63,601 bases of DNA, from assembly GCA_016207605.1 (NCBI GenBank), contig JACQPJ010000023.1:1-63601 (forward strand), written 5' to 3'. This DNA comes from Elusimicrobiota bacterium (GTDB taxonomy: Bacteria > Elusimicrobiota > Elusimicrobia > UBA1565 > UBA9628). Under the pieces are notes generated by a model. That model saw nothing but the letters and a program-made list of their open reading frames with translations, ran no database searches and was not told the origin of the DNA. Shown here one piece after another: positions 145 through 10,227 of the stretch. Positions within the stretch are counted from its first letter, which is position 1. Each line of letters begins with the position of its first letter. A program made the position numbers and the translations under genes.

Positions 145-645
145 TCAGAGCAGCCAGAAGAAGCCCACCCCGACCATCGCCAGGGTCACGCCGGTCTTGG
201 CGATGAGTGCCAGGATTCGGGCGGCGAAGGCGCGATAGCCCAGGCGCATGGCCTCGCGACGGCCCTCGCCGCGCGCGAGCTCCAGGCCGAACGCCCCCAG
301 GAAGGTGCCGAGCAGTCCCCCCGGGACGGCGCCCACGATCGGGAGCAGCGCGCCTCCCAGCAGCGCGCCCGCGAGCCCGCCGAGGACGGCGCCCCACAGG
401 CCGGCCGTGGAGACGCCGAGGCGCTTGGCGCCCAGCACGCCGCAGAACCACTCCGCCAGCTCGGCGAGGAGGCAGAGGGACAGCAGGACGACCGCGGCGC
501 CCAGCGTGACGGCCGCCTTCGGGCTGACGGCCGCCGCGAGCAGGAGCCCGGCCAGGAGCAGCCAGTTGCCCGGCAGCCCCAGGGCGAGCAGGAAAAGGCC
601 GGCCCCCGCGGCGGCGGCGAACAGGATCCAGCTCAAGATCAGCAT
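145..645 (-). CDS. DUF456 family membrane protein
   Basis: 166 aa, hydrophobic and Gly-rich; GLPGNWL and GAKRLGVS..GLWGA..GG…G.FLGAF..E pattern typical of DUF456. Confidence 0.8.
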   Translation of the reverse strand: MLILSWILFAAAAGAGLFLLALGLPGNWLLLAGLLLAAAVSPKAAVTLGAAVVLLSLCLLAELAEWFCGVLGAKRLGVSTAGLWGAVLGGLAGALLGGALLPIVGAVPGGLLGTFLGAFGLELARGEGRREAMRLGYRAFAARILALIAKTGVTLAMVGVGFFWLL

Positions 646-1290
646 CTAGGCGAAGCGGGCCTGCGCGATGCGGGCGAGGCTTTCTTCCTTGTGCCGGCGC
701 TCGTCCAGGCCGACGCGGCGCAGGAGGTCGGCGACGCTGCGGAAGTCGCCGTAGTCGGCCTTGAAATCGCTCTCGAAGAGCTCGCTCTCCAGGGCGGGAT
801 TCTCGCGCACGAACTCCATGTACTCGTGCTCGGCGTGGTCCTCGAAGTCCGCGTTGAGCGCGTAGCTCCAGGCGGGCTTGAGGGCGTAGAGCAGCCAGCT
901 CACGTGGTAGTAGAAGAAGGCCATGAGCTGGGGCAGGAGCCGGTGCAGGAGGAAGTGCTCGCGCAGGCCTTTGCGCTGGACCATCTCCTCCAGGATCAGC
1001 AGGTGCCATTGCTCGTTGTCCTGCTGGGCGCGGGACTCCCGGACGAACTCGAAGACCCGGCGCGCGAAGCCGGGGGCGCGGTAGGTGTGGGTCATGGCGA
1101 CGTAGGCCACCTGCTCCCAGGCCTGGTAGGGGACGCGGGCGATGACCTCCAGCACCTTGAACTTCGACAGTGTGCGGGCACGGCCGTAGGTCAGGTCCAT
1201 CCAGATGAACAGCAGACGGGCTAGGGGGCCGTAGCGCCGTCTTGGTGCGTCGAGCGTCGCGGCTTGTTCGGCGGCGAGGTCCTCACTCAT
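646..1290 (-). CDS. alternative oxidase / PTOX-like di-iron carboxylate protein
   Basis: LEVIARVPY, NEQWHL, FEDHAEHEY and DERRH match the four iron-ligand motifs of the AOX/PTOX family; start taken at ATG 1290, 8 nt after a TAGACT -10. Confidence 0.8.
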   Translation of the reverse strand: MSEDLAAEQAATLDAPRRRYGPLARLLFIWMDLTYGRARTLSKFKVLEVIARVPYQAWEQVAYVAMTHTYRAPGFARRVFEFVRESRAQQDNEQWHLLILEEMVQRKGLREHFLLHRLLPQLMAFFYYHVSWLLYALKPAWSYALNADFEDHAEHEYMEFVRENPALESELFESDFKADYGDFRSVADLLRRVGLDERRHKEESLARIAQARFA

Positions 1291-1293
1291 TCG

Positions 1294-1308
1294 GGCATAG
1301 TCTACCAC
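1294..1308. repeat. left copy of 15-bp near-direct repeat GGCATAGTCTAC(C/T)AC
   Basis: 14/15 identical to 5253-5267; contains a minus-strand TAGACT -10 box. Confidence 0.6.
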
Positions 1309-1320
1309 GACGCCCGGCTG

Positions 1321-1350
1321 TTGACGCCGATTTCGTTTACGATGTAGTAT
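1321..1350 (+). promoter_or_regulatory. sigma70-type promoter of the small peptide gene
   Basis: TTGACG (1321-1326), 18-nt spacer, TAGTAT (1345-1350); GGAGG RBS before ATG 1385. Confidence 0.55.
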
Positions 1351-1384
1351 GCCGGTGTCGGCGAGCCGTTTAGCGGGAGGAAAC

Positions 1385-1585
1385 ATGAATCAGCAGGCCA
1401 TCAAGCAGCTTCTCGACCGCTGGATGAACGATCCGAAATTTCGCTCGGAGGTCCGTCAGGACCCCGCCGGAGCGGTCAAGAAGACCGGCATTCAATTGGG
1501 CGCGGAGGAGCAAGCGGCCTTCCAGAAGGTCGACTGGTCTCTCTCGGACGAGCAGTTGAAGGCGCGCATCAGCAAGTTGCCGTAA
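1385..1585 (+). CDS. NHLP-clan (Os1348/Franean1_4349-like) small protein, candidate RiPP precursor, 66 aa
   Basis: MNQQAIKQLLDRWMNDPKFRSEVRQDPAGAV…LSDEQLKARISK: D-P-x-F-R…D-P leader pattern and LSDEQL/RISK end; strong RBS. Confidence 0.7.
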   Translation: MNQQAIKQLLDRWMNDPKFRSEVRQDPAGAVKKTGIQLGAEEQAAFQKVDWSLSDEQLKARISKLP

Positions 1586-1597
1586 TCTGCGGGGCGC

Positions 1598-3292
1598 TCA
1601 GCGTTTCAACTCCTTGAGAAGAGAGTGCCCGTCGAAGTTCAGGATCGGGATGATGTTGAGGAGGAAAAGGAGGTAGGACCCTCCGGCGAAGAGCGATAGC
1701 CCGTTCTGGACGGCTGGATTTTGGGAGGCATGAGCCAGGAGGGCCGCCATGCCTCCCAGGATCAGGTGGACGTAGGGCCCCGCCCAATGCACGGCCATCC
1801 TCTGCCCGCGGGGCGCGAGCCACATGTCCGAGGTGTCGACAAAGAGGATCGGAGTGATCCAGTTCCAGCCGATCCCGACCCCGAGAATCTTCCGGCCGAA
1901 AGACTTTGTCGCCAGGGCGTGGCCGGCTTCGTGCAGAAGCCCCGAGACCACGAAACAGGCGACGCCGGCGATGAGAACGCCGGGCGAGAGAGCGCTCGCT
2001 CCCAGGCGCGGCGCGGCGCGGACGTCCCGCAGGAAGAACCCGAGCCCCGCGAGACTGACGGCGGCCAGCGCGATCTGGCCGCTCCTCGTAAAAAGAGGCG
2101 ATACGGCGCGGTAAAGGCGAGCGCTCAATCCATCGGTGTTTCTCAACATGACGCGCCATTCCAGGCAGAATCGGAGGAATCCCACCGCTCTTTGGCCCCA
2201 CGAGGGAAGGAACAACCACGTCGCCCGCGACGTCCGGCTCTCGGCAAATCCCGCGGCGACCAGCCCGGAGACCGTCTCCGCGATCGCCTGCGGCGCAAAA
2301 AGACGGAACGTCTCAAAATACAGAAGAGCCAAGTCCTGCAGATTTTTACGTCCGTCGAGGTTGTCCCAAATCAGCCGTCCGTGGGGAGTGAGCCGAAAGT
2401 AGGTTCCGCGGGCGGGATCGCTCAGGATCGTGATCGAGACGCCTTCCTCCGTCGTCATGGCGTGCTCTTGAATGCCGGGAACCCGTCTCGGCGCGTCGCG
2501 CAGACCTAAGAGTTCGAAGATTTGGCGGTTCAGCGTTTGGTCTTCCTGGATGAGCTCAAGAAAATCCTCCCGCCGGATTTCCAGGAGCTCGGCGGCCTCC
2601 AGGGCTTTGACGGAGGCGTTGCGGGGAGACTCGGTGAGAAGGGCCGACTCGCCGAACAACGAGCCGGGCCCCAGGATCGCGACGACCTTTTTAAGCCCTT
2701 GCTCCTGACGGCTGACCTCCACCTGGCCCGTGCGCACCAGAAAACAGGAGCGTCCGTTCTCCCCCTCGCGGACGACCTCGCCGCCTCGCTTCAGGGAGAG
2801 GCGGTGGATCCTCCGCGCCAACAGGCGCAGGCGTTCGGTTTTCAGCGCGCCGAACGGACTGGCCAATTTCAGGAAATCGGTCAGGAGGAGCTGTTCCGCG
2901 GCCTGGACGAAATGCCTTTCCGCCTCGGGGTGCTTGGCGAGAATCGCCTGAAACGCCGCGGCGTCAAGCGTTGCGGCCGACAGATCGCAGAGGGCGACGA
3001 CGGTGGCCGTGCGCTTCTTGTCCGGGCTGAGGAGGGCCAGCTCCCCGAAGAGCGCGCCCGCCGCGAGCCGGGCGACCGCCGTCGGGCCGGAGGCCGTCTC
3101 GATCCTGACTTCCGCCTGTCCAGCCGTAATGAGGAACAGCCGGTCGCCGCGCTCCCCCTCCCGGATCACCGCGCTCCCCGGAGGAAAACTCTCCTCCTTA
3201 AGCCGGGAGCCGACTTCATCCAGGAGGGCGGCCGGGAGAGATGAGAACGCCGGATGCGCGGCTAAGAGGCCGCTGGGGGAAAAATTAACCAA
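1598..3292 (-). CDS. fusion protein: two cNMP-binding domains + PqqD-like RiPP recognition element + M50 (site-2) metalloprotease
   Basis: FGELAL…RTATV and FGESAL…RNASV phosphate-binding cassettes; YFRLTPHGRLIWDNLDG..L.DL winged-helix RRE; HEAGH and NIIPILNFDG in a hydrophobic C-terminal part. Confidence 0.8.
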   Translation of the reverse strand: MVNFSPSGLLAAHPAFSSLPAALLDEVGSRLKEESFPPGSAVIREGERGDRLFLITAGQAEVRIETASGPTAVARLAAGALFGELALLSPDKKRTATVVALCDLSAATLDAAAFQAILAKHPEAERHFVQAAEQLLLTDFLKLASPFGALKTERLRLLARRIHRLSLKRGGEVVREGENGRSCFLVRTGQVEVSRQEQGLKKVVAILGPGSLFGESALLTESPRNASVKALEAAELLEIRREDFLELIQEDQTLNRQIFELLGLRDAPRRVPGIQEHAMTTEEGVSITILSDPARGTYFRLTPHGRLIWDNLDGRKNLQDLALLYFETFRLFAPQAIAETVSGLVAAGFAESRTSRATWLFLPSWGQRAVGFLRFCLEWRVMLRNTDGLSARLYRAVSPLFTRSGQIALAAVSLAGLGFFLRDVRAAPRLGASALSPGVLIAGVACFVVSGLLHEAGHALATKSFGRKILGVGIGWNWITPILFVDTSDMWLAPRGQRMAVHWAGPYVHLILGGMAALLAHASQNPAVQNGLSLFAGGSYLLFLLNIIPILNFDGHSLLKELKR

Positions 3293-3301
3293 TGAACTCT
3301 C

Positions 3302-4285
3302 CTAGAGCCCCTGTGCCGCTCCAAAAAGCGAGGCCTTGTCGATGTAGGCGCCGAGCCTCTCTCGATAGGGCTTCCGAGGCGCCGCCAGATTCAAGCTTTT
3401 TCTAGCCCGCTCGCAGTAGAGCTCGATGAGGAAGGCCGTGAAACGGCCGACTCCCTTGGAGGAAAGGACCGCCCGCGTCTTTTCTTGTTTCGAGAGGCTG
3501 GACTCAGCCTCTTTGAGGAGCGTCAACAGCCTCCCTTGCTCCGTTGGCGAGCTTTGCCCCAGCGCCAAGGCGATCGGGAGGGTGCGCGTGCCGTTTCTCA
3601 AATCCCGGCTTGCGGGAGCCCGGAAGAGGTCATGGAAGTCGGTGGCCAACTGGGCCGCGGTCCCCAGGCCGCGTCCCATGTCCTCATACGCGTTGATCCG
3701 GTCCGGCTTGGCTCCGGCCAACAAGGCCGCCAGCGAGGCGAGCGTGGCGACTCCGCTGCTCTTGCCCCGCACGGACTCCTCGACGTCCTGCGGCCGGACA
3801 GCCGGCTTGCCCGTCATCCTGAATTCCATCTGCTGTCCGGCGGCGAGCTCTAAAAGCCCGTTGGCGAATCGTCTTTGGATTTTGCGGCGGATGTCCGCGG
3901 ACGTGTTGAGCTCCGCGAGCAAGATCTGGGGGAGGGCCGATACAAAGAGGGAGGAAGCCAGCTGGAGCTCCCAGACGCTGTACCCCGGCCAACGGTCTCC
4001 GGCGTCCCCATCGGCGACGTCGTCGCTGATGTCCAGGCCCAGGTACAGGAACTGCCCCAAGGCCGTCAGGGGGAGAGCCTCCTCTTCGCGGCCGGTGATT
4101 CCTCCGTGCACGAGGAGAGGGATCTCCGCGTACGGAGAGCTTTCCCCGGCCGGGAAATGGCCCAGCAGAGAATGGAGCAGGCGGCGCTGGGGACCAGCGG
4201 GACTGTGCGCCTCGATGAAGGACCAGGGCGCGCTACGGGCGTCTTGACGCGGCCGCGGGCTCAAGCACGGCGTGTCTCTTGTCAT
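3302..4285 (-). CDS. polyprenyl synthetase-fold protein (ComQ-like prenyltransferase or isoprenyl diphosphate synthase)
   Basis: DDVADGD first Asp-rich motif, GQQME, GKS, degenerate second motif QLATDFHD, DLRNGTRTLP. Confidence 0.75.
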   Translation of the reverse strand: MTRDTPCLSPRPRQDARSAPWSFIEAHSPAGPQRRLLHSLLGHFPAGESSPYAEIPLLVHGGITGREEEALPLTALGQFLYLGLDISDDVADGDAGDRWPGYSVWELQLASSLFVSALPQILLAELNTSADIRRKIQRRFANGLLELAAGQQMEFRMTGKPAVRPQDVEESVRGKSSGVATLASLAALLAGAKPDRINAYEDMGRGLGTAAQLATDFHDLFRAPASRDLRNGTRTLPIALALGQSSPTEQGRLLTLLKEAESSLSKQEKTRAVLSSKGVGRFTAFLIELYCERARKSLNLAAPRKPYRERLGAYIDKASLFGAAQGL

Positions 4286-5249
4286 GTTCCTCCTTGAGGG
4301 CCAGCGCCTCCACGGCCAGCGCCGTCGTCAGTTCCCGGGAGCCGTAATGAAGAAAATAGAAGCTGTGGAAGGGATGCGCCTCCCATCCACCATCCGCGGC
4401 CTGCAGCTCCCGCAGCCCGGCCAGGGCGCGATCGGCGGCGCCCTTGGGAAGCGGAAGCGATCCCTTAAAGGCCGCGGATAGGGCCATGGCTTTTTCCAGA
4501 GGGGTGACCTTGGCGGGGTCCGTGGCCGTGAGCAGCGAGGTTAGGACCTCCCGGCACGCCTTGCCGAGTTCGCCTTCCGTCCAAGGCGGGTGATCAGAAG
4601 CCAATTTCCCCAGAGCGTACAGGAAGACGGCGGGAGAGACATAATAGTTGGACGGCTGGTGAAAGCGCCGGCGGAGGATCTGGTCCTCAAGATAGCGCGT
4701 TACCTCCGGCAGGACCCTGCCGTGCCGCTGGAACAGGCAGGCCGCGTTGGCGTTCACCACCGGGTCCACGTCCTGCCGGTCGATGAACGGCGCGACGTCC
4801 GGATGCCAGTCCAGGCCGGTTCCGTGGATCCAGGTGCCGAACAAGCCCTTTTCATTTCGACAGCCCGCCAGAGCGCGCAGGCAGGCGGCGTAGGGAAAAT
4901 CGACGTCCCAATCCTTGAAGACGCCGACGATGCAGGCGCTGCAGTCCACGTCCGGCGGGACTGCATCTTCGGGGGGCCGATTCCGCATCGCTCGCCCCCA
5001 GAAGGTCCAGAAGCCGCTTGAGTCGCGCTGAGCTTTCAGCCACTCGATCGCCCGGCGAGCCGCCGCCCGCACCGCGGGGTCCTCCTTCACCGGCCGCAGC
5101 GCGTGCAGGATGACGGCCGTCGTGAAGACGTTGGACTGCGCCTGCGCGTTGATGAACGAGCGCTCGTTGGAGCTGAGCGTCGGAAATTCGCCGGAGGGGA
5201 GCTGACGGCGCAGAAGAAAACGAACGCCCCGCATCGCTTCTTCGCGCAT
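4233..5249 (-). CDS. single-domain class II terpene cyclase / prenyltransferase-squalene oxidase repeat protein
   Basis: QW-like repeats (LRRQLPSGEF, LKAQRDSSGFW, LRELQAADGGW), PPDVDCSA acid motif, DVDPVVNANA, YGSRELTTALAVEAL; only 338 aa (one barrel). Confidence 0.72.
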   Translation of the reverse strand: MREEAMRGVRFLLRRQLPSGEFPTLSSNERSFINAQAQSNVFTTAVILHALRPVKEDPAVRAAARRAIEWLKAQRDSSGFWTFWGRAMRNRPPEDAVPPDVDCSACIVGVFKDWDVDFPYAACLRALAGCRNEKGLFGTWIHGTGLDWHPDVAPFIDRQDVDPVVNANAACLFQRHGRVLPEVTRYLEDQILRRRFHQPSNYYVSPAVFLYALGKLASDHPPWTEGELGKACREVLTSLLTATDPAKVTPLEKAMALSAAFKGSLPLPKGAADRALAGLRELQAADGGWEAHPFHSFYFLHYGSRELTTALAVEALALKEEHDKRHAVLEPAAASRRP

Positions 5250-5252
5250 GGC

Positions 5253-5267
5253 GGCATAGTCTACTAC
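5253..5267. repeat. right copy of 15-bp near-direct repeat GGCATAGTCTAC(C/T)AC
   Basis: 14/15 identical to 1294-1308; same offset from the downstream minus-strand ATG. Confidence 0.6.
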
Positions 5268-5295: not shown

Positions 5296-5973
5296 TCAGC
5301 TCCCCTGGGGGCTCCCCTCGGCGCGGTGCCGGATGTCCCGGCCGAGCACCATGAAGATCACGTCCTCGGCGACATTGGTGGCGTGGTCGGCGATGCGCTC
5401 CAGGTTCCGGGCGATGAGAATGAGGCCGAGCGCCCGCTGGATCGTCGAGGCGTCGGACTGCATGATCTGCATCAGCTCATGGAAGGCCTCGCTCTTGAGC
5501 CGGTCCTCGGCGTCGTCCCGGGCGATGACCGAGCGGGCCAGCTCGACGTCCTTGCGTACGAAGGCGACGAGGCTGTCCTTGAGCATGGCCTTGGCCAGGT
5601 CCGCCATCCGCGGCAGGTCGAGAAGCTTTCTTTCCAGCGGGGGCTGCCCGAGCAGGACGGCCGCGTTCTCCGCGATGTTGACGGCCTGGTCGCCGATGCG
5701 CTCCAGGTCCGAGTTGATCTTGCTGGCGGCCAGGATGAGGCGCAGGTCGGCCGCGGTCGGCTGATGCAGGGCGATCAGCTTGAGGCAGCGGTCGTCGACC
5801 TCGATGTGCAGGCGGTTGACCGTCTCCTCGTTCTCGTGGACCGTCCTCAGCGGCGCCTCTTTTCGGTCCCGCAGGCCCTCGACGGCCGCGCGGATCATCT
5901 CCTCGGCCAGGCCGCCCATGACTAGGAGCCTCTCTTTGAGCTCGTCTTCCGCGGTTTCTAAATGCCTTCGCAT
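5296..5973 (-). CDS. phoU: phosphate signalling protein PhoU
   Basis: QPTAADLR, DLERIGDQAVNIA, NLERIADHATNVAE; last gene of the pst operon; start ATG 5973. Confidence 0.95.
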   Translation of the reverse strand: MRRHLETAEDELKERLLVMGGLAEEMIRAAVEGLRDRKEAPLRTVHENEETVNRLHIEVDDRCLKLIALHQPTAADLRLILAASKINSDLERIGDQAVNIAENAAVLLGQPPLERKLLDLPRMADLAKAMLKDSLVAFVRKDVELARSVIARDDAEDRLKSEAFHELMQIMQSDASTIQRALGLILIARNLERIADHATNVAEDVIFMVLGRDIRHRAEGSPQGS

Positions 5974-5981
5974 CAAGCCCC

Positions 5982-6785
5982 CTAGCCGAAACGGCCGGTG
6001 ATGTAGTCCTGCGTCCGCTGGTCCCGAGGATTGGTGAAGAGGCCTTCCGTGGCGCCGAATTCGACCAGGTCCCCCAGGAGCATGAACCCCGCCCGGCTGG
6101 AGACGCGGGCGGCCTGCTGCATGTTGTGGGTCACGATGACGATGGTATAGTTTTTCTTCAGCTCGAACAAAAGCTCCTCGATGCGGGCGGTGGCGATAGG
6201 GTCGAGAGTCGAGCAGGGCTCGTCCATGAGCAGGACGTCCGGCTCGACGGCCAGGAGCCGCGAGAGGCACAGGCGCTGCTGCTGCTCCGGCGGAAGGCTC
6301 AAGGCGGGAACGCGCAGCCTGTCCTTGAGGTCGTCCCACAGCCCGGTCGCGCGCAGGTTGCGCTCCACCGCCTCTTCCAGCTCCGCGTTTGACGCCATGC
6401 CGTGGATGGCGGGCCCGTAGGCGACGTTCTGGAAGACCGAGATCGGAAAGGGGTTGGGCCTCTGAAACACCATTCCCACCCGCTTGCGCAGCGCGATCAG
6501 ATCCGCGTCCGGCCGGTAGATGTCCCGGCCGTCGACGAGGACGCTCCCCTCGATGCGGACCCCGCGGACCAAGTCGTTCATGCGGTTGAAGACCCTCAGG
6601 AGGGTCGACTTGCCGCAGCCGGAGGGGCCGATGAGCGCGGTGATCTCCCGACGGGGGACGGCGACGTCCACGTCCTTGAGCGCGCGGAAGCTTCCGTAGA
6701 ACAAGGACAGCGACCGAGCCTCGATGGCGGGCGTCTGGACGCGGACGTCCGCGGCCGGGGGGTCAGCCGAAGCGGCCTGAGACAT
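5982..6785 (-). CDS. pstB: phosphate ABC transporter ATPase PstB (signature motif degenerate)
   Basis: [39 protein letters not shown]; signature reads LPPEQ instead of LSGGQ. Confidence 0.93.
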
Positions 6786-7551
6786 AGTCGGCGGTCCTCC
6801 GGTTCTGGGGGTTGGTGAAGATCAGGCCCGTCTCGCCCATCTCGACGAGGTCTCCCATCAGCAGGAAGGCGGTCCGGTCGGAACAGCGGGAGGCCTGCTT
6901 GACGTTGTTGGTCACGAGCACGACGGATATCCGGCTCTTGAGCCCCTGGAGGGCTTCCTCGATCTTGGCGGTGGAGATCGGGTCCAGGCCCGAGCAGGGC
7001 TCGTCGAGCAGCAGCAGCTCCGGGCCGGCCATGAGGCTCCGGGCCAGGCAAAGCCTCTGCTGCTGGCCTCCCGACAGCTTCAGCGCGGAGTCGTCGAGCC
7101 GGTCCTTGACCTCGTCCCAGAGGTAGGCGGCCTTCAAGCTCCGCTCGATGCGCTCGGAGGGCGGGCCCGCGGCCGCGGCGCCGAGGATGCGCAGCCCCAA
7201 AGTCAGGTTGTCCCGGATGGACATCGGCAGCGGATTGGGCACGGCGAAGACCATGCCGATTCTCCGGCGCAGGGAAGGGACGTCGACGCCTTCCCCATAG
7301 ACGTCCAGGCCGTCGAGCCGGAGGCGGCCCTCGACCGCCAGCTCGGGCTCGAGATCGATGAGCCGGTTGAGGCAGCGCAGGAAGGTCGTCTTGCCGCTGC
7401 CGGCGGGTCCGATGAGGGCCAGGATCTCTCCGCCGCGCACGGTCAGGGAGACGCCGTTGAGGATCGCGTTCTTCCCCTTCCTGACCCGAAGCCGTTCGAC
7501 GACCAGCTTGTCCGCCGGGCTCGGCACAGACGCGTCATAGGAAATGCCCAT
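6763..7551 (-). CDS. pstB: second PstB-type ATPase (Q-loop and H-switch degenerate)
   Basis: [32 protein letters not shown]; MVFA in place of MVFQ and VTNN in place of VTHN; start ATG 7551. Confidence 0.9.
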
Positions 7552-7556
7552 AGCGT

Positions 7557-8468
7557 CTAGCGGCCCTCCGCCAGGCGCCGGCGGATGCGGGCGCGCAGGA
7601 CGACGGCCGAGAAATTCAGCAGGAAGGTCAGCGTGAGCAGCACGAATACCGTCGCGTAGAGGATGGGCTTGGTCGCGTCCACGTCGGGCGACTGGGTCGC
7701 CATCACGTAGACGTGATAGCCCAGCTCCATGAACTGGTGATTGAGGCGCCTGGGCAGCTCGGGGAGGTAGTAGGCCGCCCCCGTGAACAGGATGGGCGCG
7801 ACTTCCCCCGCCCCCCGGCTGACGGCCAGGATGGTGCCCGTCAGGATGCCTCCGGTGGCCTGGGGGAGGAGCACGTACCGGACCATCTGCCAACGGGTGG
7901 CTCCCAGGGCGTAGGCCGCCTCGCGATGGCCGCGCGGCACCACGCGCAGGGCCTCCTCCGTGGCGACCACGACCGTCGGCAAAGTCAGCAGGGCCATGGT
8001 CAGCGCCGCCCACAGGATGGCGGGCTGTCCGAAATGGAGCTGTCCGCCGTAAAAGAGGCGGTCCACGCTGCGCCCCGCGAACTCGATGAAGAACCCCAGG
8101 CCGAACAGGCCGAAGACGATGGCGGGGACCCCGGCCAGGTTTTGGATGGCCAGGCGCACCGCGTGCACCAATTTCGAGCCCGCGGGCGCGTATTCCTGCA
8201 GGTAGACCGCGGTGCAGACCCCCAGGGGCACGACCGCGATGGTCATCAGCAGGACCAGGAAGACGGTCCCGAAGATCGCCGGGAAGATGCCGCCCTCCGT
8301 CATGCCGGCCCTGGGGGCCGTCGTGAGGAACTCCCAGGAGAGATGGTGGACGCCGTGGTAGGCGATATGGCCGAGGATGAGCGCGACGAGGAGGATCACC
8401 GTCGCGCAGGCCAGGCCGGTCAGGCCCATGAACAGGAACGTGATCCGGTTGATCCAGCGCCGGCTCAT
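7557..8468 (-). CDS. pstA: phosphate ABC transporter permease PstA
   Basis: GGIFPAIFGT, LAGVPAIVFGLFG, EAAYALGAT, RGAGEVAPILFTG; start ATG 8468. Confidence 0.93.
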   Translation of the reverse strand: MSRRWINRITFLFMGLTGLACATVILLVALILGHIAYHGVHHLSWEFLTTAPRAGMTEGGIFPAIFGTVFLVLLMTIAVVPLGVCTAVYLQEYAPAGSKLVHAVRLAIQNLAGVPAIVFGLFGLGFFIEFAGRSVDRLFYGGQLHFGQPAILWAALTMALLTLPTVVVATEEALRVVPRGHREAAYALGATRWQMVRYVLLPQATGGILTGTILAVSRGAGEVAPILFTGAAYYLPELPRRLNHQFMELGYHVYVMATQSPDVDATKPILYATVFVLLTLTFLLNFSAVVLRARIRRRLAEGR

Positions 8469-9406
8469 CAGAGACGGCTCCCTGAAAGCCGCTGCTTGAG
8501 GCGCTCCACGAACGCCTGGCCGAGCAGGTTGGTGGCGAAGGTGAACAGGAACAGCAAGGTGCCGATGAAGAAGAGGACGTGGTAGTGCGGGCTGCCGTGG
8601 ACGACTTCTCCCAGCTCGGCGGCGATGGTCGCCGAGAGGGTGCGCAGAGGGTCGGTCGGCGACAGGGAGAGGACGGCGGCGTTGCCCGAGGCCATCAGGA
8701 CGATCATGGTCTCCCCGATGGCGCGCCCGAACCCGAGCACGCACGCCGCGAAGATCCCCGGGAAGGCCGCGGGCAGGACCACGCGCCAGGCGGTCTGCCA
8801 GGGCGTGGCGCCCAGCGCGATGGAGCCTTCCCGGTAGCTTTGGGGCACCGCGGTCAGGGCGTCCTCGGCGACGGTGAAGACGATGGGGATGACGGCCAGG
8901 CCCAGCGCGATGCCGGCGTTGATCGCATTCAGGCGGTAATCGAGCCCCAGGAGGTCCTGGATGTAGGTCGCCATCACCATCAGCGCGAAAAAGCCCAGGA
9001 CCACGGACGGGATGCCGGCCAGGAGCTCGATGGAGGGCTTGATGATCTCGCGCAGCCACGAGGGGGCGAATTCGGAGCTGAAGACGGCCGCCCCCAGGGC
9101 CAGCGGCAGGGCGAAGAGCAGCGCCACCACGGTCGCCTTGATCGTCCCGGTCAGCAGAGGGAGCAGGGAGTATTTCGGGATCGCCGAGATCGGCTGCCAG
9201 GCGAACTCCTTGGGTTCGCTTGGCTCCGGGCTTTGCGGCAGGAAAAGCCGGGACAGGCCGGCCTCCTGCCGGACCTCCTGGGACAGGAGGACCGGCAGGG
9301 CTTCCTTGCCGATGAAGACGAAGATGAGGACCAGGCCGACGATGGCCAGCGAGGCGCTGACGCGTATGACGGCCTCGATCGCCGACTCGGCGGCGCGCCG
9401 GCTCAT
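8468..9406 (-). CDS. pstC: phosphate ABC transporter permease PstC
   Basis: ELLAGIPSVVLGFF, EGSIALGAT, GRAIGETMIVLMASGN. Confidence 0.94.
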   Translation of the reverse strand: MSRRAAESAIEAVIRVSASLAIVGLVLIFVFIGKEALPVLLSQEVRQEAGLSRLFLPQSPEPSEPKEFAWQPISAIPKYSLLPLLTGTIKATVVALLFALPLALGAAVFSSEFAPSWLREIIKPSIELLAGIPSVVLGFFALMVMATYIQDLLGLDYRLNAINAGIALGLAVIPIVFTVAEDALTAVPQSYREGSIALGATPWQTAWRVVLPAAFPGIFAACVLGFGRAIGETMIVLMASGNAAVLSLSPTDPLRTLSATIAAELGEVVHGSPHYHVLFFIGTLLFLFTFATNLLGQAFVERLKQRLSGSRL

Positions 9407-10227
9407 CGGATCGGGAAGTACCCGACTTGGCCGACGAGCTCCTGCCCCTCGGGGCCGGTGACCCAGCCGATGAAGCTCTTGATGTCTCCCGAGGGCTTGC
9501 TGCGGACGTAGAAATACAGGTCGCGGCTGATGGGATACTTGCCGGATTTCACGTGCTCCAGCGTCGGCTCGTAGGCCGCGTCCCCGTCGGTTTTCTTGAT
9601 CGGACAGAATTTGATGCCCTTGGCGTACGCCGCGCCGCCGTAGCCGATGCCGCGCTTGTCCTTGACGACGGCGTTGACGACCGCCGCCGTCCCCGGCAGG
9701 CTTTGGGCCATGGGACTGAAGTCCCGGCCTTGGAGGACGTTGTCCTTGAAGTAGACGTAGGTCCCCGAGTTGTTTTCCCGGGAGTACAGGATGATCTTGG
9801 CGTCCTCTCCCCCCACGTCCTTCCAGTTCGCGATCTTGCCGCGGTAGATCTGCTCCACCTGCCGCAGGGTCAGCTCCTTGACGGGGTTGGAGTCGTTGAG
9901 ATAGACGGCCAGGCCGTCGCGCGCCACCGGGATCTCGACGCCCAAGGTGTTAAAGCGGTCGCGGAGGCTGAGCTTTTCCTTCCGGCTCATCGGCCTCGAC
10001 GCCGCGCAGATGTCGGTCGAGCCGTTGATCAAGGCGGCAATCCCGGTTCCGGAGCCGCCGCCCGTCACCTGGATCGAGACGCCGGGATTCTTGGCCCTGT
10101 AGGCTTCGGCCCATTTTTGATTCAGGATGACCAAGGTGTCGGACCCCTTGATCGTGATGGTCGCGGCCGCGTTGAGCGGCACGGCTAGGGCCAACAGGCC
10201 GGCGGTGATGGACCTCATCGGCCTCAT
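9403..10227 (-). CDS. pstS: phosphate-binding periplasmic protein PstS
   Basis: Signal peptide, IKGSDT, GGGSGTGIAALING, SRENNSGTY, YPISRDLY. Confidence 0.94.
   Translation of the reverse strand: MRPMRSITAGLLALAVPLNAAATITIKGSDTLVILNQKWAEAYRAKNPGVSIQVTGGGSGTGIAALINGSTDICAASRPMSRKEKLSLRDRFNTLGVEIPVARDGLAVYLNDSNPVKELTLRQVEQIYRGKIANWKDVGGEDAKIILYSRENNSGTYVYFKDNVLQGRDFSPMAQSLPGTAAVVNAVVKDKRGIGYGGAAYAKGIKFCPIKKTDGDAAYEPTLEHVKSGKYPISRDLYFYVRSKPSGDIKSFIGWVTGPEGQELVGQVGYFPIR

Follow-up and report, generated by a model that had tools for sequence, protein, structure and literature searches.

Four adjoining genes near the start of a contig from an Elusimicrobiota bacterium raise the question of whether these organisms attach a terpene to a ribosomal peptide, and which of the four genes belong to such a system. 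The contig (JACQPJ010000023.1 of assembly GCA_016207605.1; 63,601 nt, hereafter the window) corresponds to C9 in a metagenome-assembled genome (MAG; G000) of 1.44 Mb that is 75% complete. The genes (1385–5249) encode a 66-aa peptide of the NHLP clan, a protein joining cyclic nucleotide (cNMP)-binding domains and a putative recognition element (RRE) for peptides that are synthesized ribosomally and modified after translation (RiPPs) to an M50 protease, an enzyme with the fold of the trans-isoprenyl diphosphate synthases (IDSs), and a candidate class II terpene cyclase. A first-pass annotation had joined all four into one system, and all four lie where it placed them. We found that the peptide, the IDS-fold enzyme and the cNMP-RRE-M50 protease are a conserved unit, and that the cyclase is a local add-on to this cassette, linked to it only in the window.

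A three-part cassette

We scanned across genomes for the IDS-fold enzyme, which we call the transferase after its presumed function, keeping one genome per species. The scan gave 33 transferase loci, 20 with close matches (phmmer E ≤ 1e-13) and 13 with weaker ones. A gene for a peptide of the Os1348 type, the family of the window peptide, lay on the same strand within 3.5 kb at 18 of the 20 close loci; the two exceptions were a Methanoregula locus, where the match was on the opposite strand, and a contig 2.4 kb long. No peptide gene was found at the 13 weaker loci. A full-length gene for a cNMP-PqqD-M50 protease was also present at 12 of the 20 close loci, which makes the conserved unit a three-part one. 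To control for background, the hidden Markov model (HMM) of the peptide was run against 80 unrelated metagenome loci, those of the cyclase family, and had no match. The first-pass annotation was thus right that these three genes belong together, as their linkage recurs both in this genome and in many phyla, and the reverse pattern, in which homologs of the enzyme mostly lack a peptide gene, is not what the close loci show. Its four-part architecture does not describe a conserved type.

Carriers of the cassette come from no fewer than seven higher taxa (Elusimicrobia, Armatimonadota/Chthonomonadaceae, Deltaproteobacteria, Chloroflexota, Rhodoferax, Vulcanimicrobiaceae, Bryobacteraceae and Alphaproteobacteria), the last with the cultured isolates Tistlia consotensis and Thalassobaculum fulvum. 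Clustering the neighboring open reading frames (ORFs) in 22 loci revealed no further conserved neighbor family, with ORF calling that was crude in these high-GC sequences.

Within the host genome we counted seven peptide genes, two transferase genes and two protease genes. On contig C25 (65404–72083; L136:5405-12084), four tandem Os1348-type genes stand directly behind a transferase paralog on one strand. The paralog is 39% identical to the window enzyme and is preceded by genes for an exporter: OEP, HlyD, an FtsX permease and an ABC ATPase with a fused GAF domain. Contig C6 (7517–9075; L137:2518-4076) carries a peptide gene followed by a 45% identical cNMP-PqqD-M50 paralog, which is shorter, has one cNMP domain instead of two and has no transferase nearby. 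A lone peptide gene on C39 (11365–11562) sits between two ORFs resembling nucleotide-sugar dehydrogenases. In G014, a genome of the same genus, the genes for three peptides, the enzyme and the protease follow one another, with no cyclase gene among them. In a sample of 61 related genomes (G000 and 60 others), the transferase was found in two, and peptides above the family cut-off in the same two.

A separate observation concerns the Methanoregula MAG (L018:8990-10723, minus strand), where the IDS-fold gene adjoins an ORF on the opposite strand that combines an Os1348-like N terminus with a long low-complexity region rich in Gly and Asp.

Peptide, putative transferase and protease

The peptide gene (1385–1585, plus strand) encodes an Os1348-type domain (approximately residues 1–61) followed by a short tail (ISKLP or shorter). 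Its product scores 56.7 bits against NF038399, the model of the "Os1348 family NHLP clan protein", for which the cut-off is 40, and so belongs to the family. A profile of 21 cassette peptides matched an 85-aa chain in the PDB (6lk7, E 3.3e-8), which we take to be the crystal structure of Os1348. According to the available part of its description (PMC7726476), the prototype Os1348 from Pseudomonas sp. Os17 is a dimer of an 85-aa, six-helix protein in which the final six residues are disordered.

Alignment of the 21 cassette peptides showed that only M1, F19, G35, D50, D55, L58 and R61 are invariant, all within positions 1–61, and that the tail beyond R61-x-S is hypervariable and 1–18 residues long. 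Tails in Elusimicrobia and Armatimonadota read IP, LP, M, VA, GA, FFS or FG; one Chloroflexota copy ends in a single C; and alphaproteobacterial tails of 11–12 residues containing Trp are found beside Trp-free ones. Two precursor types, one with tails resembling W-S-D-P-I-G-x-P-W/F-D and one with Gly-rich, W-free tails, are encoded at the alphaproteobacterial loci L026, L027 (Tistlia consotensis), L028, L030 and L031. L027 also has a pair of IDS-fold genes, as though the two transferases served separate substrates. At a Bryobacteraceae locus (L025:7267-7814), two precursors bear Cys-rich tails ending in ...GCVFACC and ...GCCCSASC, which might be S-prenylated, a situation in bacteria akin to that of CaaX proteins. 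Tandem arrays of two to four paralogous peptide genes occur as well. A conserved leader, a hypervariable core and tandem genes beside tailoring enzymes are the generic features of RiPP precursors, and the division into a conserved domain and a variable tail looks, by sequence, like that of a leader or scaffold joined to a variable core. The acceptors first proposed for a prenyl group, W13 and W51, did not hold up in this alignment. Neither is conserved: W or Y stands at position 13 (Y in peptides from Alphaproteobacteria), where the prototype Os1348 also has a substitution, and W, F or L at position 51.

The transferase gene (3302–4285, minus strand) encodes 327 aa that match PF00348 (polyprenyl_synt) with 50 bits, above the cut-off, compared with 197 bits for the genome's canonical IDS. 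The pairing of an intact DDxxD with a degenerate second motif, noted at first reading, stood up. The first Asp-rich motif (FARM) is DDVAD (D88–D92; 4010–4024), with neither D88 nor D92 varying among 61 family members, and the second (SARM) is TDFHD (3629–3643), where the family consensus is S-D-C-x-D and the general form is S/T-D-x-x-D. In canonical IDSs, GGKRxRP, RRG and K-rich residues serve the binding of isopentenyl diphosphate (IPP), and the FARM holds the Mg2+ and the diphosphate of the allylic donor. In an alignment with two canonical IDSs, one of them the genome's own, which carries GGKRLRP, DDLPAMDDDDLRRG and FQIADDVLD, the window enzyme and its relatives lack GGKRxRP, the RRG after the FARM, the K-rich loop and the first Asp of the SARM. 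They thus have neither both Asp-rich motifs nor the basic IPP-site residues of a chain-elongating trans-IDS, in support of the earlier view that this enzyme is not one.

The fold is less discriminating. An AlphaFold2 (AF2) model of the window enzyme has a mean predicted local distance difference test score (pLDDT) of 93.6, and in Foldseek it reaches a query TM-score (TMq) of ~0.8 to IDS structures and 0.73–0.74 to the Trp prenyltransferase Ord1. The fold alone does not separate a synthase from a peptide prenyltransferase; the sequence does. Two marks of IDS-like peptide prenyltransferases are present, namely an IDS fold with an intact FARM and a pseudo-SARM, and a gene beside a precursor gene (at 18 of 20 loci and for both copies in the host genome). 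ComQ likewise has a FARM and a pseudo-SARM (PMC10853753, available part). Complex prediction from the transferase and peptide alignments scored 0.72–0.73, against 0.65 for one unrelated control partner, a difference to which we give no weight on the question of binding. The family is large, with 1540 representatives at E ≤ 1e-3 and 120 sequence clusters at E ≤ 1e-30. The best 150 representatives are all 180–422 aa long, so none of them is fused, and no fused relative appeared among the longer proteins searched, which is weak evidence.

The protease gene (1598–3292, minus strand; 564 aa) begins 9 nt beyond the transferase gene and encodes the presumed leader peptidase. Two cNMP-binding domains (147 bits), at approximately residues 16–136 (2885–3247; stretches matched by NCBIfam and Pfam) and at residues 166–251 (2540–2797; PF00027), precede a PqqD-like, RRE-type segment at residues 289–329 (2306–2428). 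In the window copy this segment scores 21.6 bits against PF05402, below the cut-off of 23.4, which both the C6 paralog (26.2 bits) and the G014 homolog (25.9 bits) exceed. The M50 catalytic core (1616–1963; PF02163, 28.6 bits, cut-off 27.2) has HEAGH at residue 454 and NIIPILNFDG at residue 546, the HExxH and NxxPxxxxDG motifs of site-2-protease-type enzymes. Both motifs are invariant across 14 homologs (H454, H458, N546, P549, D554 and G555), in which the cNMP domain was detected in 14, M50 in 13 and PqqD in 13 (E ≤ 0.01).

The nearest NCBIfam models are M50 proteases of RiPP maturation, NF041824, the daptide HExxH protease (103.6, cut-off 300), and NF058609, YydH/LiaK (47.4, cut-off 225). 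Both matched far below their cut-offs, as did TIGR03896, a cNMP-domain "bacteriocin-type transport-associated protein" (72.3, cut-off 161). The RiPP-maturation M50 models share the M50 core and HExxH with the window protease, and TIGR03896 resembles it in tying cNMP-binding domains to peptide systems of the NHLP/Nif11 type. None of the three describes two cNMP domains, PqqD and M50 in a single protein.

Comparison with known systems shows both kinship and distance. As far as the available part of its description goes (PMC10853753), the PalP-PalX-PalQ system of Paenibacillus alvei pairs an NHLP precursor with a prenyltransferase of the isoprenoid synthase superfamily, and the modified core of PalX is short and C-terminal. 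PalX has a conserved C-terminal Trp, whereas the window-family peptides share no Trp, and the partner gene there encodes a histidine kinase, with no cyclase, in place of the cNMP-RRE-M50 protease and cyclase of the window. ComX-ComQ shares the IDS fold with a FARM and a pseudo-SARM, and a short prenylated C-terminal piece freed by proteolysis (PMC10853753 and PMC13290415, both in part); in these accounts its leader is not of the Os1348/NHLP type, its acceptor is an internal Trp and its protease is not encoded alongside. The OS3 cluster, Os1348-Os1351, has the same precursor family (NF038399 is named after Os1348), a flexible C terminus and an adjoining efflux system, but its tailoring genes, in the portion of the report at hand (PMC7726476), encode a GNAT acetyltransferase, an HExxH peptidase-like protein and a SagB-type dehydrogenase, with no prenyltransferase, M50 protease or cyclase.

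The cyclase and its surroundings

The cyclase gene (4233–5249, minus strand) encodes 338 aa with a weak match to SQHop_cyclase_C (22.2 bits, cut-off 26.1). An AF2 model based on 17 homologs (pLDDT 93; predicted TM-score 0.92) has the alpha/alpha-barrel fold of class II cyclases. Its best structural matches were the class II domains of drimenol and drimenyl diphosphate synthases (AsDMS, 9m7d/9mhs; SsDMS, 7xq4), with E 2e-14 and TMq 0.72–0.73 for AsDMS; phmmer likewise matched a class II domain of this kind (E 1.8e-11). The monodomain cyclases 8paj and 8pak (342–345 aa) followed with a TM-score of ~0.7. All share the same single barrel of ~340 residues and QW-type repeats are present, but identity to the drimenol/drimenyl diphosphate synthase domains is only 22–23%, and the window protein has no HAD or other partner domain. 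The presumed catalytic-acid motif, of the DxDD type, is DVDC (4941–4952), which aligns with DLDT of drimenol synthase (9mhs), the two having a non-Asp fourth residue in common; distant family members have DxDDT at this place. D100, D102, Q283, G287 and W289 are invariant in the 17 homologs. On the strength of the model we assign the fold to class II confidently, and a monodomain class II cyclase is a credible identification of the protein. MstE, the cyclase named in a review (PMC13290415, available in part), was not among the structural or sequence matches.

Few members of the family occur in a clustered protein database (17 proteins at E ≤ 1e-5), but metagenomes contain 175 relatives, of which 80 loci were kept. 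No fused relative was found among the longer proteins searched, which is weak evidence. The closest relatives outside Elusimicrobia (45%–48% identical) are fusions of 572–573 aa with an N-terminal domain of ~250 residues (L049:1407-3128, plus strand; P0005). The N-terminal domain of the L049 fusion had no match in the Pfam copy searched or the PDB, and an uninformative ESM Atlas score of ≤0.78; a precomputed database annotation of P0005 gives PF28380. If this domain were a prenyltransferase, these proteins would be fused enzymes of the ChrPC kind.

Does the cyclase act in the same pathway as the transferase? As first described, three co-oriented genes on the minus strand (cyclase, transferase and protease) converge on the peptide gene on the plus strand, a layout that Pfam, NCBIfam and the gene coordinates confirm. 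The 3′ end of the cyclase gene overlaps the 5′ end of the transferase gene by 53 nt (4233–4285, minus strand; the two ORFs in different frames), and the transferase ribosome-binding site (RBS), AAGGAGG, lies within the cyclase gene ahead of the transferase ATG. Going by this arrangement, co-expression of the two is almost certain, and of the arguments for the cyclase having a part in the pathway only the overlap is solid. Two further points favor it, namely that cyclase and cassette co-occur in the same two of the 61 related genomes and that cyclase domains joined to peptide prenyltransferases have precedent.

The wider distribution weighs against such a role. A cyclase homolog was found at none of the 33 transferase loci and in none of 10 cassette genomes of other groups, by a whole-genome profile search that recovered both positive controls (G000 and G014), and the 80 cyclase-family loci are those at which no peptide gene was detected. 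Three of them instead adjoin a canonical polyprenyl synthase (166–254 bits), which suggests free-terpenoid pathways. Only G000 and G014 carry the cyclase in a phylum sample of 401 genomes, and in G014 it is unlinked, on another contig between genes for an aminopeptidase and an adenosine deaminase. Its shared presence in the two genomes may reflect common descent, because the cyclases are 70%–72% identical, near two ordinary orthologs, adenosine deaminase and RmuC (75%–81%), whereas the cassettes are far less alike: the window cassette is only 41%–50% identical to that of G014, which is closer to the C25 set (59% for the enzyme). PstC, considered as another gauge of relatedness, was dropped as probably paralogous (37%–38% identity to four genus members).

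The junction itself looks young, because the window cyclase is ~17 residues longer at its C terminus than the G014 homolog, an extension that runs on into the transferase gene, and because of a contrast in GC content at third codon positions (GC3). GC3 is 0.79–0.80 in the cluster genes (1598–5249) and 0.87–0.95 in most neighbors (the pst/phoU operon and the DUF456 gene), which hints that the three cluster genes were acquired from elsewhere.

The cyclase is therefore not the regular fourth part that it had been taken for, and for its acting in the transferase's pathway in the window we claim only a tentative possibility, somewhat short of even. Much of the same evidence fits a cassette that modifies the peptide and a cyclase that independently makes a free cyclic terpenoid, for example from farnesyl diphosphate (FPP) or geranylgeranyl diphosphate (GGPP), and that was placed here by a recent rearrangement, sharing only the transcript. 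Its absence from the other transferase loci and cassette genomes, its isolation in G014, the canonical synthases near some family members, the use of free FPP by the drimenol and drimenyl diphosphate synthases it most resembles, and the run-on extension would all follow. With the overlap, the internal RBS, the shared occurrence and the fusion precedent set against it, we regard an independent cyclase as rather doubtful.

The precedent comes from ChrPC and NctPC, fused maturases reportedly published by Hubrich et al. in Chem in 2024. According to the available part of a review (PMC13290415), each fuses a prenyltransferase to an MstE-like cyclase, and a C10–C20 prenyl chain is cyclized on Trp; the comparison with ComQ and with such enzymes drawn in the first-pass annotation was apt. 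As described there, ChrPC resembles the window pair in bringing an IDS-like prenyltransferase and an MstE-like monodomain class II cyclase to a ribosomal peptide. ChrPC and NctPC are single polypeptides with a Trp acceptor, whereas the window has two ORFs overlapping by 53 nt, and unlike in the fused enzymes the cyclase is not a regular companion of this transferase family. Four features set the cassette apart from the Pal, Com and fused-enzyme systems: a leader of the Os1348 type, a cNMP-RRE-M50 protease of its own, non-Trp tails and, in the window only, a cyclase gene that stands separate. Our literature search found no description of a cassette of peptide, IDS-like enzyme and cNMP-RRE-M50 protease, or of a cluster with split transferase and cyclase; the primary reports on the fused enzymes lay outside the search, and an earlier description is possible there.

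The peptide gene appears to have its own expression signals, as proposed. Sigma-70-like hexamers, TTGACG-18-TAGTAT, lie upstream of it (1321–1350, plus strand; 9 of 12 positions match, a consensus match only), with one such site found where 0.2 was expected in shuffled sequence, and GGAGG stands 6 nt before the ATG. The window locus, as was also noted at first, has no ABC/C39 exporter. The window stretch is present in four groundwater metagenome DNA runs, all from one study; there was no RNA among the sequencing runs listed as containing it, which says nothing on expression.

Just past the peptide gene lies a gene for a di-iron protein resembling alternative oxidase (AOX; 646–1386, minus strand; PF01786, 34.5 bits), whose longest ORF overlaps the peptide start by 2 nt. 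We considered it as a member of the system and rejected it, as none of the 33 transferase loci has a homolog. Beyond it is a gene for a DUF456 membrane protein (145–645, minus strand). On the other side lies a pst-phoU phosphate-uptake operon (5296–10227, minus strand) that includes two genes for pstB-like ATPases. It shares the strand of the cyclase gene and stops 46 nt upstream of it, so that read-through into the cluster is possible.

A candidate prenylation pathway and its rivals

From the observed genes, domains, motifs, folds and conserved linkage we infer a pathway and its chemistry, from the transfer of a prenyl group to the peptide and the atom that accepts it to the site of cleavage and its gating, as well as the part of the cyclase and the biological role. 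The Os1348-type domain (~61 residues) would act as leader or scaffold, with the very short hypervariable tail at its C terminus. Because the transferase has kept the FARM and lost the residues of IPP condensation, it is most likely a prenyltransferase that lipidates the tail of the precursor, in the manner of ComQ, PalQ and the P domain of ChrPC. The prenyl lipid would probably bring the tail to the membrane and to the intramembrane active site of the M50 protease, which would dock the leader through its PqqD-like domain and then cut it off, with the two cNMP-binding domains probably gating proteolysis. Export of the product may be the task of the exporter encoded with the C25 set. In the window, the cyclase would probably close rings in the prenyl chain, either after transfer or before it, on the diphosphate donor, the latter being the order of labdane pathways, in which a class II step is followed by a class I step. 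The order reported for ChrPC and NctPC is cyclization after transfer (PMC13290415, in the available part).

That the peptide is the substrate of the transferase we consider probable. For the pathway as a whole, a prenylation of the PalQ/ComQ kind with an RRE-M50 leader peptidase, extended in the window by a split cyclase, we would put the chances at about even. The main difficulty is the missing Trp, because every characterized IDS-like peptide prenyltransferase targets Trp (PMC13290415, as far as the available part goes). The cassette peptides have no invariant Trp and hence no conserved acceptor of this kind, and many tails (IP, M, VA, GA, FG) have no Trp, Tyr or Cys at all, so that the chemistry may not be side-chain prenylation. 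Foldseek, moreover, does not tell the window enzyme from true synthases.

The same components could instead form a signaling switch, in which the Os1348-type protein is a small regulator or scaffold, given a lipid anchor by the transferase and then processed by intramembrane proteolysis that cyclic nucleotides control, with no biosynthesis involved. M50 enzymes are the classic proteases of regulated proteolysis, sensory domains prevail among the accessory parts (cNMP in the protease, GAF in the exporter's ATPase), and tails as short as one residue, on a conserved part that is folded and dimeric in the prototype, would suit such a role. Tandem arrays of two to four genes with hypervariable tails and a dedicated tripartite exporter, as on C25, are typical of secreted RiPPs, and loss of Os1348 lowers antibiotic activity in the prototype (PMC7726476, available part); we consider this explanation improbable. 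An ordinary two-gene terpenoid pathway, with the peptide and protease as unrelated neighbors, would account for the overlapping genes, the above-cut-off polyprenyl_synt match and the undistinguished fold, but it is very improbable: the enzyme lacks the IPP-site motifs of the genome's true synthase, and its homologs adjoin Os1348-type peptides at 18 of 20 loci but this cyclase at none.

Returning to peptide prenylation, a bolder form of it deserves mention as an outside chance: a widespread, undescribed class of products in which non-Trp, ultra-short tails (down to one or two residues) are lipidated by the IDS-fold enzyme on a folded NHLP scaffold and freed by a protease gated by cyclic nucleotides as terpenoid-amino acids or -dipeptides, the lipid being cyclized, in this genome, by the separate class II cyclase. 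Such tail release would resemble the way mycofactocin and pyrroloquinoline quinone (PQQ) are carved from scaffold peptides.

To our knowledge, peptide prenylation by IDS-fold enzymes is limited to a few systems (ComQ, PalQ and ChrPC), all of them Trp-specific, and a transferase family linked to Os1348-type peptides with often Trp-free tails may reveal new acceptor chemistry. The cassette protease would be the family's first dedicated leader peptidase. Its cNMP domains, together with the GAF domain of the exporter, suggest second-messenger control of RiPP maturation, a subject on which we know of no study. Tistlia consotensis and Thalassobaculum fulvum, as cultured carriers, make the cassette directly testable. 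The split cyclase, if it acts in the pathway, shows terpene cyclization recruited to a peptide pathway short of fusion.

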